A stretch of DNA of 64,000 bases from Octopus vulgaris. Its lineage: Eukaryota. The notes under the pieces are model-generated. The model did no database searches. It worked only from the letters and a program-made list of their open reading frames with translations, and was not told where the DNA came from. The DNA lies in the NCBI GenBank assembly GCA_951406725.2, contig OX597840.1, positions 37,572,001-37,636,000 of the forward strand. The letters are read 5' to 3'. Positions 3,464-56,265 of this stretch are shown piece by piece. Within the stretch, counting starts at the first letter, position 1. Every line of letters starts with the position of its first letter. Made by a program: the position numbers and the translations under genes.

Positions 3464-3685
3464 ATATATATAATAAAATATTAGGGAATAAATCCAAACT
3501 TACAGGGAAAAATCAGATTTAGGATTGAATCCAATTTTATAGTAAAATATTATATTATATTAAATTAGAGATAAAACCACTATTAGGCAAATCAAACAAT
3601 GAAAAACTCAAGCCAATACATAAGATTAATTAATTTATATTATTTAAATATATATAAAAATTATTAAAAACGATAATTAATATAA

Positions 3686-3748
3686 CACTACGATCGTTTC
3701 ATGGCTGTTCAATTCTTAAAATTTTCGAGTTACAGTCATTTTCAGGTG
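3686..3748 (-). ncRNA. Hammerhead motif H2 (long helix II; one core base deleted)
   Basis: Minus strand CAC-CTGAA(-)A-ATGACTGT...ACAGCCAT-GAAAC-GATC-GTA-GTG. Confidence 0.55.
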
Positions 3749-3764
3749 GTTTACATATTTAAAC

Positions 3765-3828
3765 CACCTGAAGAATGACTGTAACTCGAAAATTTTAAGA
3801 ATTGAACAGCCATGAAAAGATCGTAGTG
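3765..3828 (+). ncRNA. Hammerhead motif H3 (long helix II; C15.2 changed to A)
   Basis: CAC-CTGAAGA-ATGACTGT-23 nt-ACAGCCAT-GAAAa-GATC-GTA-GTG. Confidence 0.65.
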
Positions 3829-3840
3829 TTATCTAATTTA

Positions 3841-8204: not shown

Positions 8205-8455
8205 TACCTTGATCACATTGACCGAACTGTCCGTCAGGCGTCCATTTGACACCACTGGTCACAGCACGCTGTCCACTCCTCTCTGGATCGCGCCTTTCTT
8301 ATCCATGTGATCCCAATCGTCCTCCTGAAATCGTAACTCCACCGTCGTGGAGGCCTTCCGGGTGGTCGTTTCCGCTCGCGCGGGTACCACTCGACAACTG
8401 CGTGGGTCCACCGATTATCGGTGTGCCGGGCGACGTGTCCAGTCCATCTAAACTT
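8205..8455 (-). mobile_element. RTE-clade LINE 3' end
   Basis: KFRWTGHVARHTDNRWTHAVVEWYPRERKRPPGRPPRRW is the typical RTE ORF C-terminus. Confidence 0.88.
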
Positions 8456-8602
8456 TAGAAGTTTATATATAAGATTAATCAGCCGAAATTGCGAGAATGA
8501 TCCGGTTCTTGACTGAAGATTGAAGGCTTCGAATGTCCCGTCCGTGTTTTTTGTGTCATCTTCTAAATGTTTCACGTTCTCGTCCCAGTTTGTATTTTTT
8601 TA

Positions 8603-15290: not shown

Positions 15291-15613
15291 TACATATATA
15301 TATATATTATACGTATACACATATGTAAATAACAAGCTCAACACAGCAGAAATAAAAGACGTCAGAGAGAAAGTTTTGAATATTACACATTCTGCTAAGG
15401 TAATATGTTGTATGTAATGATGACTAAGCATAATTTCTCGACAATTGAGATTGAGAACAAATGGAGATATTATCCTGAGAAATTTAGGCAGTGGTTAGCG
15501 ATTTTCTTCACTACTTCAGGGAGTGATGAACCTGCGTGACACGACTCCCGGAGTCAGCTGGCTCCGTCTGACTGTACCCGGTATGGGCCCCTATCCAGGG
15601 TTACGGAAAGGAG

Positions 15614-15667
15614 ACAACCTTCAAAGATACCCGGAGTGGGTCCATTCCGGGTATCTTTGAAGGTTGT
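15614..15667. repeat. Near-perfect 54-bp palindrome
   Basis: 22-bp perfect arms acaaccttcaaagatacccgga/tccgggtatctttgaaggttgt around gtgg-gt-ccat. Confidence 0.95.
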
Positions 15668-15670
15668 ATT

Positions 15671-15705
15671 CTTTACTTTTCGAGTCCACGCTCTTCAACA
15701 GAAAG
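15671..15705 (-). ncRNA. Variant-core hammerhead-like motif H5 (family B, degenerate)
   Basis: Minus strand CTTT-CTGTTGA-A-GAGC-GTGG-aCTC-GAAAa-GTA-AAG. Confidence 0.45.
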
Positions 15706-15720
15706 GAATAAGTGGAAATA

Positions 15721-15757
<37 letters not shown>

Positions 15758-16888: not shown

Positions 16889-17934
16889 GTATGGATGTGT
16901 GGATGCACATGTGCATGTATGTGTACATGCACTTTAATGCAATGCACTGCTCTGCTACTAATCACGCTCGTATATAACCTCATAATTAAAAACATAATAC
17001 TTGAGCCGCCATATTCATTCAAGCGTTGACATTTCCACTAATTATAATTTGTCATCAACAAGTAGTCATACGCTAATCAAAACATACAAAGCCCAACCTA
17101 ACGTTTTTATTTTAATATTTTTTTCTCTTTTTCCTTTTTTTTCTTTTTTCTGTTACTGAATCAGTGATATCCTCCCCATTCGTCTATCCCGACCCCGTCT
17201 TCCCACTCACGTCAACAGTGATAATTCTTCCGCCGGGAATGCATAATCCATGTTATAATATTCCCTTCTATCAAACAAAATCACGGTTTTCCTTTCTAAA
17301 GAAAACTCTTTTGTTTTCCTTCACGAGTGTCGTCATATCCGTCTCCGAGCAGACAACGCAGACGCCGTCATTTTAATTACTCACACTCTGTTCAGTATTA
17401 ATTGGCATAATTAACCAGTGTTACAGCAATGCTTTATTATACGAAAAGAGAGACACCCTTTGTATTTCTATGAACGTATTATACACACGTCTTTTGTGTC
17501 GGACATGTATTTGTGTCTTACTAGCTACACACGTGTAGTTTATGGCATAATAACTTCTCTCTATCAATCGTTTGGCCTTCTCGATTTACTAAATCCCCCG
17601 TCTTTCTTTCTCTCCTTTTCTCCTTCTTTCTCTCCCACTTGTTGCTTTTGATAGAAGCCTGGCGTAGTTCTGACGTCGTTCATGTGATGCTTTGTCTTCC
17701 ATTTGTGCAGCCTGCGACGTTTCATTTGCATAAGGAGGAAAAGTGTATATACTCGGAGCTTTGCCATGGATCGTTGTACTTGTGGCTGGACACTGATGAG
17801 ATATACTCTAACACTGCATAACGTCTCTCCTTGTTATGTAATTATTTCGGCATTTTTATGACACACGTGTATGTCCTACAAAACTTTGAATTCCATATAT
17901 GTTCTCTCTTTATTATTTGTTTAAAGTATACATT

Positions 17935-21952: not shown

Positions 21953-22150
21953 CATGATAGACCGTTAGCTCCTACACGCATTTTTTTCTCTCCTTGTTTC
22001 TTTTCTGTGTATCTTTCTGTTGAAGAGCGTAGGCTCGAAACGTAAAAGACTTGTTCTATTTCTATTCCTGAGCGCCATACTAATACAATTGTTTGTTTGT
22101 AATTAACCTGCCTTCGTCTTTTGTTTATTTTCGTAAACCTTCCCGTTATA
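21953..22150 (+). mobile_element. Family B short HHR-like element (most complete copy)
   Basis: Homologous pieces at 15671-15726(-), 29822-29965(-), 52988-53075(+) and 53180-53300(-); 3' end cttcccgtta runs into TA. Confidence 0.8.
22012..22049 (+). ncRNA. Variant-core hammerhead-like motif H7
   Basis: TCTTT-CTGTTGA-A-GAGC-GTAG-GCTC-GAAAC-GTA-AAAGA: helices I and II intact, loopless ACGT helix III, U at core position 6. Confidence 0.62.
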
Positions 22151-22483: not shown

Positions 22484-22905
22484 ACTCTTACTCACTTTTA
22501 CTCTTTTACATGTTTCAGTCATTTGACTGCGGCCGTGCTGGAGCACCGCCTTTAGTCGAGTGACTCGACCCCGGGACTTATTCTTTGTAAGCCCAGTACT
22601 TATTCTATCTGTCTCTTTTGCCGAACCGCTAAGTGACGGGGACGTAAACATACCAGCATCGGTTGTCAAGCAATGCTAGGGGTACAAGCATAGACACACA
22701 AACACATACACATACATACATATACATATACATACATATATAGGACAGGCTTCTTTCAGTTTCCGTCTACCAAATCCACTCACAAGGCATTGGTCGGCCC
22801 GGGGCTATAGCAGAAGACACTTGCCCAAGATGTCACGCAGTGGCACTGAACCCGGAACCATGTGGTTGTTTAGCAAGCTACTAACCACACAGCCACTCCT
22901 GCACC
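22484..22905 (-). mobile_element. SINE S2, full length
   Basis: Reverse complement of the 11199 and 29397 copies. Confidence 0.92.
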
Positions 22906-23330: not shown

Positions 23331-23928
<598 letters not shown>

Positions 23929-29396: not shown

Positions 29397-29800
29397 GAGT
29401 GGATGTGTGGTAAGTAGCTTGTTAACCAACCAAATGGTTCCGAGTTCAGTCCCACTGCGTGGTATCTGGGCAAGTGTCTTCTGCTATAGCCTCGGGCCGA
29501 CCAAAGCCTTGTGAGTGGATTTTGTAGACGGAAACTGAAAGAAGCCTGTCGTATATATGTATATATATATGTATGTGTGTGTGTATGTTTGTGTGTCTTT
29601 GTTTGTCCCCCTAGCATTGCTTGACCACCGATGCTGGTGTGTTTACGTCCCCGACACTTAGCGGTTCGGCAAAAGAGACCGATAGAATAAGTACTGGGCT
29701 TACAAAGAATAAGTCCCGGGGCCGATTTGCTCGACTAAAGGCGGTGCTCCAGCATGGCCGTAGTCAAATGACTGAAACAAGTAAAAGAGTAAAAGAGTAA
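29397..29800 (+). mobile_element. SINE S2, near full length
   Basis: High similarity to 11199-11598; (aaaagagt) tail. Confidence 0.92.
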
Positions 29801-29909
29801 TATATATATATATATATATATATGAAATTTACAGAGAAACAAAAGGCGTAGACACTTGTATAAACAACAAGCAGTTGTATTAGTTTGACGCTCGGGAAGG
29901 TGAGAAAGT

Positions 29910-29945
29910 CTTTTACGTTTCGAGCCTACGCTCTTCAACAGAAAG
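29910..29945 (-). ncRNA. Variant-core hammerhead-like motif H9, in family B element 29822-29965
   Basis: Minus strand CTTT-CTGTTGA-A-GAGC-GTAG-GCTC-GAAAC-GTA-AAAG, identical to H7 although the flanks diverge. Confidence 0.62.
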
Positions 29946-30020
29946 GAACACGAGGAAATAAACAAGAGAGAGAGAGAGAGAGAGAGATAGGATAAAAGGA
30001 GAGAGACTAAAATACTTTTT

Positions 30021-46370: not shown

Positions 46371-46708
46371 AGGTACTTGTGTTGCATAGACAGGTTTTAT
46401 TTCCGGCGCTGGTCCTCTGAGTGGGTGCTGAGGAGAAAGCGCTAAGCTGTGTCCTTCACGGACCGTTATGATGTAATTATGTCTCTCGAAATACCCCAGG
46501 ACGCCTCTCGCATGCAGGAGTATCGCAAAGTGCACCCATAGAGTGCAGCTCGAGACTAGTAATGGAACTAAGAGTCATATATTTGCCTGACTAACTTTGC
46601 TGGAAATCCAAAATGTATATGCATATCCATGAAAGCACAAAATAACACAACAACGCGAGGACGTGGAGCAAATATAGTATTATTGGACGCTCAGGAAAGG
46701 AAAGGAGG

Positions 46709-46743
46709 GATTAACGTTTCGAGCGGAGCTCTTCGTCGGAAAC
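46709..46743 (-). ncRNA. Hammerhead motif H10, in short element ~46625-46817 related to family B
   Basis: Minus strand GTTT-CcGACGA-A-GAGC-TCC-GCTC-GAAAC-GTT-AAtC; keeps A6, has C at position 4. Confidence 0.6.
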
Positions 46744-47622
46744 ATAGGAGAAGGAAAGATCTAGAGAAGGGAAGACAGAAGAAAAAAAATCGTCAACGGT
46801 ACACACGCGGTCGCACAAACACACACACACGCACACACACTAACACGCAGAGGTATTTTCTTTCATCTTTCTTTTTTTCGATGTCTGCTAATCACTATTG
46901 TTTACTCTTTTCTTTATTTCTCTTATTCCATGCCTTCCCAGAATGCCTTTCAAATTTCTCATGATTCTACATCGTTCATCCTGTTCCTGGCCTTTTTTTC
47001 TACCAACCTTACTTACAATTAATTTCGCTCTTTGTGCTCTCTCTCCGTCTCCCTGTCTCCCCATCTCTCTATCCCTCCGTCTCCCTATCTCTGCATTTTC
47101 TTGTCTCTCCGCATCCCTATATCTCTGTCTCACGCGCTCTGTCTTCATTCAAGGTTTAATACCTCATCTACTAATTATTTATTCTCGTCCCGGGCTAACC
47201 CTTATGCACAAAATTATATCTTGCTCTACTTTACTGCGAACGACAGACTGCTGGATAGACTTTAATACAATGCCCCATACTTTGTGTTCTCCCAGCGAAA
47301 GAGCTAATTGTTTTCCATATCCATTATGTTAATCGCTTGACATATTATTTTATAATATCTCTTCTTTCTTGTTCCTGGGCACTGTTCTAATTCGAACTCA
47401 TACTGTCTTGGGCATTATATTGCTGTCTTATTTCCGAATGTGCTTTGTTGCTGTCCAGTCTTTACTGCATTTTTCCTGAAATCAGTTTTCTATTTTTATT
47501 GGTTCATGAAAGTAGCTATATTGCAGTTAAAGTGCCGAAATCGCCAGAAGATCAAGGAAAACAGCTGATGAAGATAGCTCTGTGACACTGTGTTTTCCGC
47601 GTTCTATTAGTTTGAGTTAATT

Positions 47623-49117: not shown

Positions 49118-49702
49118 GCATGTGTATCTATGAATTTCTATATATTTGAGAGTATAATCTACAGATATGAGTGGTAAGACTAATGCTGTCCCCAACCAAC
49201 CTTGGTTGCTGCTTTTGGTACAAATAACACTTACTAAGCACAACTTACAAAGTGCTGATATGGACCCCATAAATTTTGCAAGCTAGCTAATCAGTTTTGC
49301 AAATACGTCTAAGTATAGAATCAACCCTTGCTCTACTTAAGGGTGAAATACTACCATAGACTCTTCAGTTAGTCAGTGTGAGCTTTGTTGATTTGCAATC
49401 AGCATAGAGGACCCCATAAATCAACGGGCTAAAGACTCTATCCGTTTCCTGGCTCCACATGATAAACGAGAGAGGATGAGGAGGCCTGTGGTGCGAATAA
49501 ACTATTTTCTTACTAAAAATTAACCAATAGCACTTAACAGTTGTGTGCTGCCTCTACAGTTACTGGAGCAAGAATTAAAAAAAATTAACTGAGACATCAA
49601 TGGGCAGAGCGATGGAAGAAGAAGGGAGAAATAGGTTGGTATAAAAGTCAGACATATTCTTTACTGTATAGAATTGGAAAATGGAAGCGTCGTTGTGGCT
49701 GG

Positions 49703-50025
49703 AACAAAATCTCTCGTGGAAGCGTCATCCAACCAAAGTACAAATATATGGGAAATTACCACCTGTGTCATCTCTTGTGAAGGGTAGAAGAGTCCAGTTT
49801 GCTGGACATTGTTGTAGAGCTGAAAACGAAGTAATTTCTACTCTCCTCCTCTGGCAGCTATCTACCCGCAATACCAGAGGGCGCACACTCTCCTACCCTG
49901 ATGTAATATCCAGGGATACAGGCATCAAACAACAGGACCCCCGTAATGCTATGAGGGAATGTGAAGTCTGGCGTAGCTTGGTAAATTCCATTGTCTCGAC
50001 CACGGTCGAACAATGATGACGATAT
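49703..50025 (+). mobile_element. RTE-like LINE 3' end, well preserved
   Basis: NLSWKRHPTKVQIYGKLPPVSSLVKGRRVQFAGHCCRAENEVISTLLLW...VWRSLV, stop, short TGA-repeat tail. Confidence 0.8.
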
Positions 50026-52744: not shown

Positions 52745-52955
52745 CATATGTTTGTGTGTCTTTGTTTGTCCACCCAGCATCGCTTGACAACCGATGATGG
52801 TGTGCTTACGTCCCCGTAACCAAGCGATTCGGCAAAAAGATTCCGAGAGAATAAGTACTGGGCTTACAAAGAATAAGTCCTGGGGTCGATTTGCTCGACT
52901 AAAAGCGGTGCTCCAGCATGGCCACAGTCAACTGACTGAAACAAGTAAAAGAGTA
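52745..52955 (+). mobile_element. SINE S2 3' half
   Basis: Close match to 11380-11585. Confidence 0.88.
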
Positions 52956-52987
52956 TATATATATATGTATATATATATGTATATTTA

Positions 52988-53071
52988 TATTTCCTGAGCG
53001 CCATACTAATACAATTGTTTGTTTGTTTTCCACCTGCCTTCGTCTTTTGTCTATTTTCATAAAGCTTCCCG

Positions 53072-53075
<4 letters not shown>
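52988..53075 (+). mobile_element. Family B 3' part running into (TA)n
   Basis: Close match to 22062-22150. Confidence 0.8.
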
Positions 53076-53137
<62 letters not shown>

Positions 53138-53189
53138 TATTTCACATAGCATAGCAATGAAAACCTTGGAGAGAACGTGAAATAAAAGT

Positions 53190-53225
53190 CTTTTACGTTT
53201 CGAGTCTACGCTCTTCTGCAGAGAG
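53190..53225 (-). ncRNA. Variant-core hammerhead-like motif H12, in family B piece 53180-53300
   Basis: Minus strand CTcT-CTGCAGA-A-GAGC-GTAG-aCTC-GAAAC-GTA-AAAG. Confidence 0.5.
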
Positions 53226-53861
53226 GGAATTAGAAAAATCAAGGAGAGAAACAGGGAAAGAGAAAAAATGTGTGTAGTGGCTAACGATCTGTCATGGCGA
53301 CTGCCAGAGATTTTTTTAACCCCATCCCGCTCCCATTATTTGAACCTTATCCCGGCTGCTTAATTTTCTAACCTTGCTTGTTGAACTCCCTCTTCTCTGC
53401 TAATTTATTCGAAAGATTCTCTGAAATAGCTTTCAAGCAGTCATCGTAGCCGGTTCCTTTCTCTTGTTTAAACTGTCCTTGCAATAATGAAACCTCTCTC
53501 GGTCTATTGCTTATTCAACAGTGTTAAGCTGCCATACAACCGGCAGCGTCGTAGATTCTCTCCTCTCTTTTTATAACATTTGTCATATTTGATCTGAGTG
53601 TCTTGCGTTCAAACATTGTTTAGTAGACTCTTATTCTCTTGTTTTTCTAACATTTGATCCACAGTGAGAAATTTACGCTAGATAGGTTTCCCTTCAGGTT
53701 AGATGACATCTTTCTTTTTTCAAATTGGTGACAGATTTCTCTTCTCACAATCATACAAGGAATTTTTTATTCGTTTAGACTCTTTCTCTCTTTCCCTCCC
53801 TCAATCTTTCCCTCACTATCTCTCTGTCTTTCTGTCTCTTTCTGTCTCTCTGTCTCTCTGC

Positions 53862-55398: not shown

Positions 55399-55444
55399 TG
55401 TCCGGAAATCTTTCGTCACACATCTGTGACCTCTTCAGCGACAC
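55399..55444 (-). ncRNA. Hammerhead motif H13
   Basis: Minus strand GTGTCG-CTGAAGA-G-GTCACA-gatg-TGTGAC-GAAA-gatt-TC-CGGACA: canonical core, 6-bp helix II, bulged helix I. Confidence 0.68.
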
Positions 55445-55599
55445 TCTTCGTTGCCGCTTGTGTTCTTGCTTCACTTACTCCATTCTCTTCTCCTAAGAGG
55501 TGTATCCTTAGGTGCGCATGCGTTTATGTCCTTGTATGTTTGTGTGTGTGTGTGCGTATGTATATATTGATCGTATATGATTAATACGGAAGACCGCAT

Positions 55600-56265
55600 T
55601 AATTGTACATCGTCATCTGGGACTTTCGACTGGAAGAAGTCCAATTTTGATTTTAAAACACCTACATCCACTTTGTGTGGGTCCCTCAGGCTCTTTGGGA
55701 GAACATTAAAAAGCTGTGGGCCTTTGAAACCCAGGCTGCTGCAATAACTGGTCTTGAGGCGTAATGGCATTGCTGCGGTTTTGGCACTATGCAGTGTCGA
55801 CTCGTTCTGGCATTGGTGTAGCTTTCAATGCCGAAATTTGGCACAATTCCTTACAGGATCTTCGAGATATATATTACTGCATACCTCTCCCGTCTTCTCT
55901 CCAAGGAATATAGTCTTAGCTGTCTCAGCTGTTTCAGTAGCTGAGCAATTGCAAAGAGACGACTTACTTTGTGAACCTTCTCTGGATTTCTTCAAGGTCC
56001 GCTGTTAATTTCACACTTTTGGGTGACCATAACTGGGAGCAGTAATCCAAGAGGCTGAAGACGAATGTTCTCCAGAGGACCATCATGGTTTCTTATCTCT
56101 GGTTCTGAATGTTCTCGGGATCCATCCAGCCAGTTGTCTGCACTTTGTCGCCATCCTGGTAATGTGCACTTGGAAAGAGGTGTCATCACTCATGTCGATA
56201 CCCAAATCGCTCACTGATTTAGGCTCTGGGATTGTAATCCCCTGTGAACCAGTGTACCCTGCATG
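55600..56265 (-). pseudogene. CR1-like LINE, post-RT C-terminal fragment
   Basis: MATKCRQLAGWI.RTFRTRDK.TMMVLWRTFVFSLLDYCSQLWSP..DLEEIQRRFTK and SLGFKGPQLFNVLPKSLRD..KSKLDFFQSKVPD, with frameshifts. Confidence 0.85.

Follow-up and report, generated by a model that had tools for sequence, protein, structure and literature searches.

Penelope-like retroelements (PLEs) of metazoans carry minimal hammerhead motifs characterised by a recurring nucleotide lying after position 9 and before 10.1, a G10.1-C11.1 pair and a palindrome at positions 15.2-16.2, the dimers of which cleave weakly (PMC4209133). The minimal type I hammerheads described by Cervera and de la Pena (2014) lie in the pseudo-LTR (pLTR) of the element, have a short helix I and occur as thousands of solo truncated copies, all of which applies to the motif considered here, and the Acropora Neptune example exhibits the same 4-bp helix II layout (PMC4209133). 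As far as the available text of that work goes, the core variant recorded in PLEs is U3-A8, and the representatives of its Fig. S3 have A6 and U4 in 56 of 56 cases, a tally biased by a descriptor that required the core, whereas the family reported here has U6. The small variants of Lunse, Weinberg and Breaker, as related in PMC6765202, are likewise comparable to this family by their reduced stem III, their association with PLEs and their cleavage as dimers.

Natural departures from A6 have a precedent in the hammerhead of phage Bcep176, an A6C variant that is slow but active and prefers Mn; introduced into a fast ribozyme, the same change lowered its rate at 0.3 mM Mg to 3.6e-6 per min (PMC3088659; PMC7151607). 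Like the present family, Bcep176 combines a natural pyrimidine at position 6 with an otherwise intact core, but it is a single, monomeric phage ribozyme with C6 and measured activity, whereas the U6 family comprises more than 16,000 retroelement copies known by their sequence. A deep scan of another hammerhead found low activity in all single mutants of the CUGA turn, and comprehensive double mutants of that hammerhead revealed no compensating pair for the turn (PMC9901934). Regarding the use of the ribozyme by the element, the hammerhead of the green anole Poseidon element PAc requires the element's protein in order to cut, and the accessible part of the report states that catalytic mutants (the core residues C3 and G8 being those tested) still insert in vitro and that no RNA reads end at the site (PMC11167929). 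Both PAc and the element described below are EN+ PLEs with partial tandems and a pLTR hammerhead, most templates being used uncut, but PAc belongs to another PLE clade and has its ORF begin within the ribozyme (PMC11167929); in the present element, ~730 nt separate the predicted cut site from the ORF start downstream of it. The EN+ clade Neptune exhibits RT then GIY-YIG, a CX2-5CxxC linker (common to Neptune and Nematis), microsatellite targets and a pLTR hammerhead (PMC8557442); the present element has the same organisation but differs by its non-canonical core, its placement being made here from motifs alone.

The window, that is the whole stretch of 64,000 nucleotides analysed, is AT-rich, microsatellite-laden animal DNA from Octopus vulgaris, and the genome searched was a 2.8-Gb assembly. 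All four motifs announced by the original prediction are present in it, at 22012-22049 (+), 29910-29945 (-), 15671-15705 (-) and 53190-53225 (-). The first belongs to a pLTR fragment (21953..22149, +) flanked by TA/CA microsatellite tracts on both sides, which corresponds to the 5'-truncated 3' end of a Neptune-type PLE of subfamily S3; this copy has 95% identity to the subfamily copy L078, with 40 more matches at 94-97%, and upstream of the pLTR sequence longer relatives continue into the endonuclease ORF. In the 22012 motif (all parts on the + strand), a helix I of 5 bp pairs 22012..22016 with 22045..22049, as read from the sequence and the predicted fold, and encloses the core 5' strand C3 U4 G5 U6 U7 G8 A9 followed by an extra A (22017..22024, C3 being 22017 and U6 22020). 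Then come helix II (22025..22036), with 4 bp including G10.1-C11.1 and a 4-nt loop, similarly supported by sequence and predicted fold, and the segment 22037..22044, in which G12 A13 A14, the palindrome A15.1 C15.2 G16.2 U16.1 of a putative intermolecular helix III and H17, here A17, are recognised by sequence. By its match to the PLE minimal layout the cut site is predicted after 22044, the position already given for H17 in the original prediction.

This layout supports the reading as a hammerhead-type motif, since an extra nucleotide after A9, G10.1-C11.1, a palindromic loopless helix III, a short helix I and a location in the pLTR all agree with the PLE minimal hammerhead, from which the motif departs at A6 of the CUGANGA core. 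It was correctly anticipated that helix III has no loop and can form only between two copies. Two features had been presented as peculiar and are in fact ordinary: the extra A after A9 belongs to the CUGANGAH consensus, standard for the class, and the loopless palindromic helix III is likewise part of the published consensus (PMC4209133).

The second copy (29808..29973, -) belongs to the older subfamily S1 and has an intact U6 motif at 29910-29945 with C3 at 29941. From CTTT through AAAG it is identical to the 22012 motif, although the two subfamilies are about 33% apart, so that the asserted identity within differing flanks stands. The third copy (15671..15730, -) is decayed and ends just past helix I but has retained U6; the fourth (53184..53300, -), also decayed, is nearest to the A7 subfamily S2, and its C6 is a private change. 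Both have a mismatch in helix II, and in the 15671 copy C15.2 has also become A. The common reading beginning with CTTT is right for 22012 and 29910 but not for 53190, where helix I has CTCT. Besides, at 52982..53079 (+) the youngest subfamily, S4, is represented by a 3'-end fragment (98%) beginning downstream of the motif, and a copy of a sister lineage at 46628..46810 (-) contains a motif (46709-46743) with C4 and A6; this relative had been rightly credited with A6, but its C at position 4 had been overlooked. The ORF listing gives no element ORF near the copies in the window, which holds truncated ends only.

Several other features share the window. At 15519-15667 (+), a GC-rich stretch of several helices contains the words GAUGA and GAAA and is followed by a near-perfect 22-bp inverted repeat (15614-15667) adjoining the 15671 copy, and a short interspersed repeat occurs in either orientation ~130-400 bases from three motif copies (~22520-22600, 29620-29790 and 52800-52950). 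At ~3660-3835, a long near-perfect inverted repeat scores 47.2 bits against the Rfam model mir-181 (cut-off 45.5), a match that is probably a hairpin artefact. The open frames 8234-8599 (-), 49672-50016 (-) and 55471-55824 (-) presumably correspond to the ends of LINE-type retrotransposon proteins, which they resemble.

The identity of the host element emerges from full-length relatives elsewhere in the genome, in which the ORF domains were tested. Going upstream, longer copies show a C/A-rich tail and then a C-x4-C-xx-C linker and GIY-YIG region; when this protein piece was searched against the genome, the best 150 of 17,645 candidates were all at 99-100% identity. The 20 long loci reveal a unit of 4,480 bp with a single ORF encoding RT plus, at the C-terminus, a GIY-YIG endonuclease, where RVT_1 is above its cut-off and GIY-YIG, at E 0.005, below it, but with the YIGQT motif present; the linker, located in the ORF ahead of EN, conforms to CX2-5CxxC. 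A pLTR partial tandem is found in 17 of these 20 loci, the upstream repeat belonging to the same subfamily and each repeat containing the motif, at a spacing of ~4.5 kb, and in both repeats of full-length partial tandems the motif lies ~105 nt from the element 3' end. Insertion into TA microsatellites, 5' truncation and inverted copies (the pair L012/L013) were also found. The linker and the domain order match the Neptune type, as do the TA targets and the partial tandems, so the motif host is a Neptune-type PLE with the motif within its pLTR, an assignment that derives from motifs and not from a tree of reference elements. The stretch from the start to the endonuclease is free of stops in 11 of 18 cases, with a mean difference of 0.46%, the other 7 having indels of 1-2 bases; the element is young, recently active and very abundant, and the four repeats of the window are its tail fragments. 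A non-LTR retrozyme, made of non-coding short tandem units, was considered and discarded, the copies being truncated ends of a 4.5-kb coding element; L066 was the one place where a short tandem appeared. The youngest subfamily (L129:7272-7581 and further young loci) has an ORF that continues beyond the stop of older copies, adding a low-complexity tail of Pro/Ser/Leu that varies in length.

At the genome scale, a 27-letter motif pattern with positions 6 and 7 left free matches exactly at 17,008 places and, when reversed as a control, at 0, so the motif is not a product of chance. Position 6 is U in 16,358 of these matches, A in 197, and C or G together in 453. When the whole core was left free, 19,333 matches were obtained, and among the first 100 listed position 6 was T in 94, C in 3, A in 2 and G in 1, all four bases occurring at position 7. 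In 1.06 Mb sampled blind to the motif, U6 is present in 29 of 34 spanning copies, the others having C (3), A (1) or a gap (1). The count of bases at positions 6 and 7 called for by the original prediction has thus been carried out genome-wide, and young copies do not revert to the canonical A6, U6 standing in 71 of 71 motif matches at the young coding loci L090-L139 (50 loci picked by protein match, some of them overlapping). A6 copies have the flanks of U6 subfamilies, and their nearest neighbours are mostly U6. A hidden A6 subfamily was rejected on the ground that A6 copies sit within each U6 subfamily; three long-branch A6 copies do cluster loosely on a weak flank-only tree, where they are not resolved as a subfamily. 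Copies with A6, C6 or G6 being scattered in U6 subfamilies, U6 is the family state, a consensus and not decay as had been proposed, but the formulation "U or C" at position 6 has to be abandoned, the other bases being scattered point mutants and the C6 of the window a private change. Non-T bases are twice as frequent at position 6 (650) as at position 4 (316), a difference that sequence context could explain.

The sister lineage, to which the 46709 copy belongs, is homologous and has 12,761 exact matches in the genome; among the first 100 listed, position 4 is C in 74, U in 24 and A in 2. Its largest subfamily is fixed for C4, and the U4 copies are not merely CpG decay but include a separate canonical U4-A6 subfamily. 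Upstream of the A6 sister copy L232, a decayed EN can be recognised. On the flank-only tree, built from 135 of 293 copies after thinning and weak with its ~86 columns, copies with U6 and a 4-nt GUAG loop form one clade among the copies listed, and the nearest outside relatives of that clade, again among those listed, are C4-A6. This placement, together with the A6 found in 56 of 56 published PLE representatives, makes U6 most likely a derived state.

Other hammerhead-like motifs are present in the same window. Within an inverted duplication at ~23460-23710, the segment 23605-23648 (+) has a hammerhead whose core is canonical and whose helix III is small and near-palindromic; in its relatives at L174 and L175, helix II covaries. 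A member of a third hammerhead-like family lies at 55400-55442 (-), with a 6-bp helix II and A9; in this family, four copies at L199/L201 and many others have C9, possibly another fixed core variant.

Whether the U6 motif is maintained as a fold can be approached by comparing it with its flanks. Four U6 subfamilies were considered: two were collected by the 3' flank alone (29 and 28 copies), the third by 211 bases that include the motif (29) and the fourth by protein (43 after filtering to U17). Between these subfamilies the flank majorities are 16-33% apart and 35 of 86 flank columns vary, whereas only positions 7 and 17 vary among the majorities of the 28-column motif, the other columns giving 0 of 26 (Fisher p 1e-5, an optimistic value given that the flanks are of low complexity and the columns not independent). 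The motif is thus better conserved than its surroundings, and the objection that it might be no better conserved than its flanks does not hold. Positions 7 and 17 are the free positions of a hammerhead, and variation confined to them indicates that the fold is under selection; the chance that the varying columns fall on hammerhead-free positions is ~0.04 if the free positions are taken to include loop II. The four subfamilies have A or U at position 17, with G17 in 0 of 34 blind-sampled copies (and in 3 of 72 aligned sister copies). As 41% of the flank columns are variable, a single fixed column is unremarkable, so these figures make no case for selection on U6 itself.

Comparison with the sister lineage, the flanks of which are 45-49% apart from those of U6 copies, leaves C3, G5, G8, A9, the extra A, helix II, G12-A15.1 and the palindrome unchanged; between the two lineages loop II changes in length and helix II stays. 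One compensatory pair is seen in helix I, the outermost pair being C-G in the 22012 motif and G-C in the sister C4 subfamily. Within the U6 lineage, the sequences of helix II and loop II are conserved but do not covary, and a helix II search returned mostly uncompensated point mutants, a compensating A-U being present in 2 of the first 100 copies listed that differ at position 10.3. Conservation of loop II and helix II beyond what the hammerhead fold needs would fit protein recognition. The near absence of covariation, together with low-complexity flanks, could also be taken to mean that the motif is vestigial or acts at the DNA level, for instance as part of a pLTR promoter, its conservation being only apparent because pyrimidine-rich flanks mutate fast and align badly. 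This explanation is unlikely, as it leaves unaccounted for the complete invariance of the 26 columns, the restriction of changes to hammerhead-free positions, the compensated pair of helix I and a helix II that persists under a loop of varying length.

The motif had been expected to escape standard searches, which is borne out by an Rfam scan in which the hammerhead models gave 0 matches at the gathering score in L129, L190, L014 and L165, the last being an A6 copy. In the window itself, no hammerhead match figures among the 150 of 435 Rfam matches listed, which are microsatellite and hairpin matches to miRNA models. Predicted folds of natural copies retain helices I and II, and the subfamilies were not seen to share an extended helix I when these folds were checked for a loop I-loop II contact. 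They also indicate a closed monomer, in which U4-G5-U6 would pair with A15.1-C15.2-G16.2: in 40-nt folding windows the probability of the G5-C15.2 pair is 0.44-0.98 in five U6 copies and 0.98 in a sixth, vs. 0.00-0.11 in four natural A6 copies. With longer context, it drops to 0.01-0.12 for 3 of the 6 U6 copies. The idea that C4 and U6 stabilise one and the same closed pairing was rejected, sister copies closing in another register. A CCYGAGCG box lies ~25 nt downstream of each predicted cut site (e.g. 22067-22075) and is conserved in both lineages, a possible protein site or switch; predicted pairing of its GAGC with the 3' strand of helix II is strong in 2 of 2 sister copies and weak (0.00-0.13) in 5 of 5 U6-lineage copies.

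If cutting were frequent, it might have left a footprint in the copies themselves. The 5' ends of 105 copies lie upstream of C3 in 95 cases, inside the motif in 4, at the cut site in 1 and downstream in 5, and no pile-up at the cut site is seen, 1 of 105 copies and 0 of 20 long loci starting there. Genomic copies thus come from templates that were mostly uncut and copied through the motif. A6-bearing sister copies starting at the cut site also number 0 of 38, so this footprint does not discriminate between motifs, and slow cutting is neither proved nor excluded by it. Among sequencing data, no RNA source is listed for the stretch, and 20 of 24 runs (8 studies, 3 organism labels) contain at least half of its words; the four examined are contigs, which cannot show RNA ends, and their variant table leaves out even position 7, making it uninformative for position 6.

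The same 5' ends bear on the idea of an efficient ribozyme with a re-tuned core, in which U6 would be compensated, for instance by the GUAG loop acquired on the same branch or by another metal preference. The single clade marked by U6 and the 4-nt loop on the weak flank-only tree (~86 columns) is compatible with it, as is the shift of A6C variants towards Mn (PMC3088659; PMC7151607). It is nevertheless very unlikely, with 95 of 105 copies copied through the motif, with no compensating pair for the CUGA turn in double mutants of another hammerhead (PMC9901934) and with even A6 PLE hammerheads being slow (PMC4209133).

The opposite view, in which the motif no longer cuts and the hammerhead-shaped RNA is bound by RT/endonuclease, or dimerises, near the start site of reverse transcription, U6 and C4 being tolerated because chemistry is unneeded, is less likely than the favoured reading given below but comes close to it. 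The lack of copies piled up at the cut site suits it, and so does the fixation of two different core changes (U6 and C4) by two related lineages, along with the sequence conservation of loop II, helix II and the downstream CCYGAGCG box. In other hammerheads, mutations at position 6 or in the CUGA turn leave almost no activity (PMC3088659; PMC7151607; PMC9901934), and cleavage is dispensable for insertion of the PAc element in vitro (PMC11167929). What such a role explains less readily is that C3, G5, G8, G12 and the U16.1-H17 rule have been kept across lineages 45-49% apart in their flanks, that the columns varying in the U6 lineage are the two free in a ribozyme, and that H17 is held to non-G, which binding alone need not require.

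With all catalytic bases and the NUH rule kept, an attenuated ribozyme, assisted by dimerisation or by a protein, is favoured, and is given an even chance of being the right reading. Under this hypothesis, cutting of the RNA after position 17 would require two motifs to pair via their ACGU palindromes, probably with help from the element's own protein. U6 would slow the chemistry, judging from position-6 changes in other hammerheads, and, by closing the monomer hairpin as the folds predict, may hide the palindrome and damp dimer formation. Most transcripts would then escape cutting, reverse transcription passing through the motif as it did for nearly all genomic copies, and selection would keep a low, conditional cutting, for RNA end-processing or circle formation, instead of fast cutting. 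The slow A6C ribozyme, the protein-dependent PAc hammerhead and the weakly cutting PLE dimers are precedents that count for an attenuated ribozyme. Against it count the severe damage caused by CUGA-turn and A6C changes, the absence of a cut-site pile-up, the dispensability of cutting for PAc in vitro and the fixed C4 of the sister lineage; the conservation of loop II and helix II without covariation, the few sister copies with G17 and the dependence of the predicted closed hairpin on context would also weigh on that side.

No U6 hammerhead family was found in the literature searched, the alignment of Lunse et al. (the largest survey) and rate data for A6U lying outside it, nor is U6 mentioned in the available portions of the bioRxiv retrozyme preprint, PMC6155905, PMC6962438 and PMC11014351. 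Judged by its sequence, the U6 motif is a new core variant, the ribozyme class and the element class both being known; what is new is the fixed U6 only, architecture and host class being already known, which limits the surprise. It does show that high-copy families escape descriptor and Rfam searches. More broadly, the reason why PLEs keep a hammerhead is unsettled, the motifs cutting poorly and cutting being dispensable for insertion in the sole in vitro system. In this regard, the U6 family represents a natural experiment, that is a young, coding-intact element with a fixed substitution that cripples other hammerheads and with the other core bases conserved. Because canonical, C4 and U6 subfamilies reside in one genome, natural sequences alone allow a direct comparison. 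A spreading U6 family with a C4 sister may mean either that the core is rescued by protein or dimer and cuts, or that the fold is selected without catalysis, a proposition held with slightly less than even confidence. If rescued, it would be a new tolerated core, and core-strict searches would undercount animal ribozymes by tens of thousands per genome; if non-catalytic, it would provide the first clear example from nature of selection acting on a hammerhead fold that has no catalysis. Cutting or non-cutting, either result would tell what the Penelope hammerhead is for.
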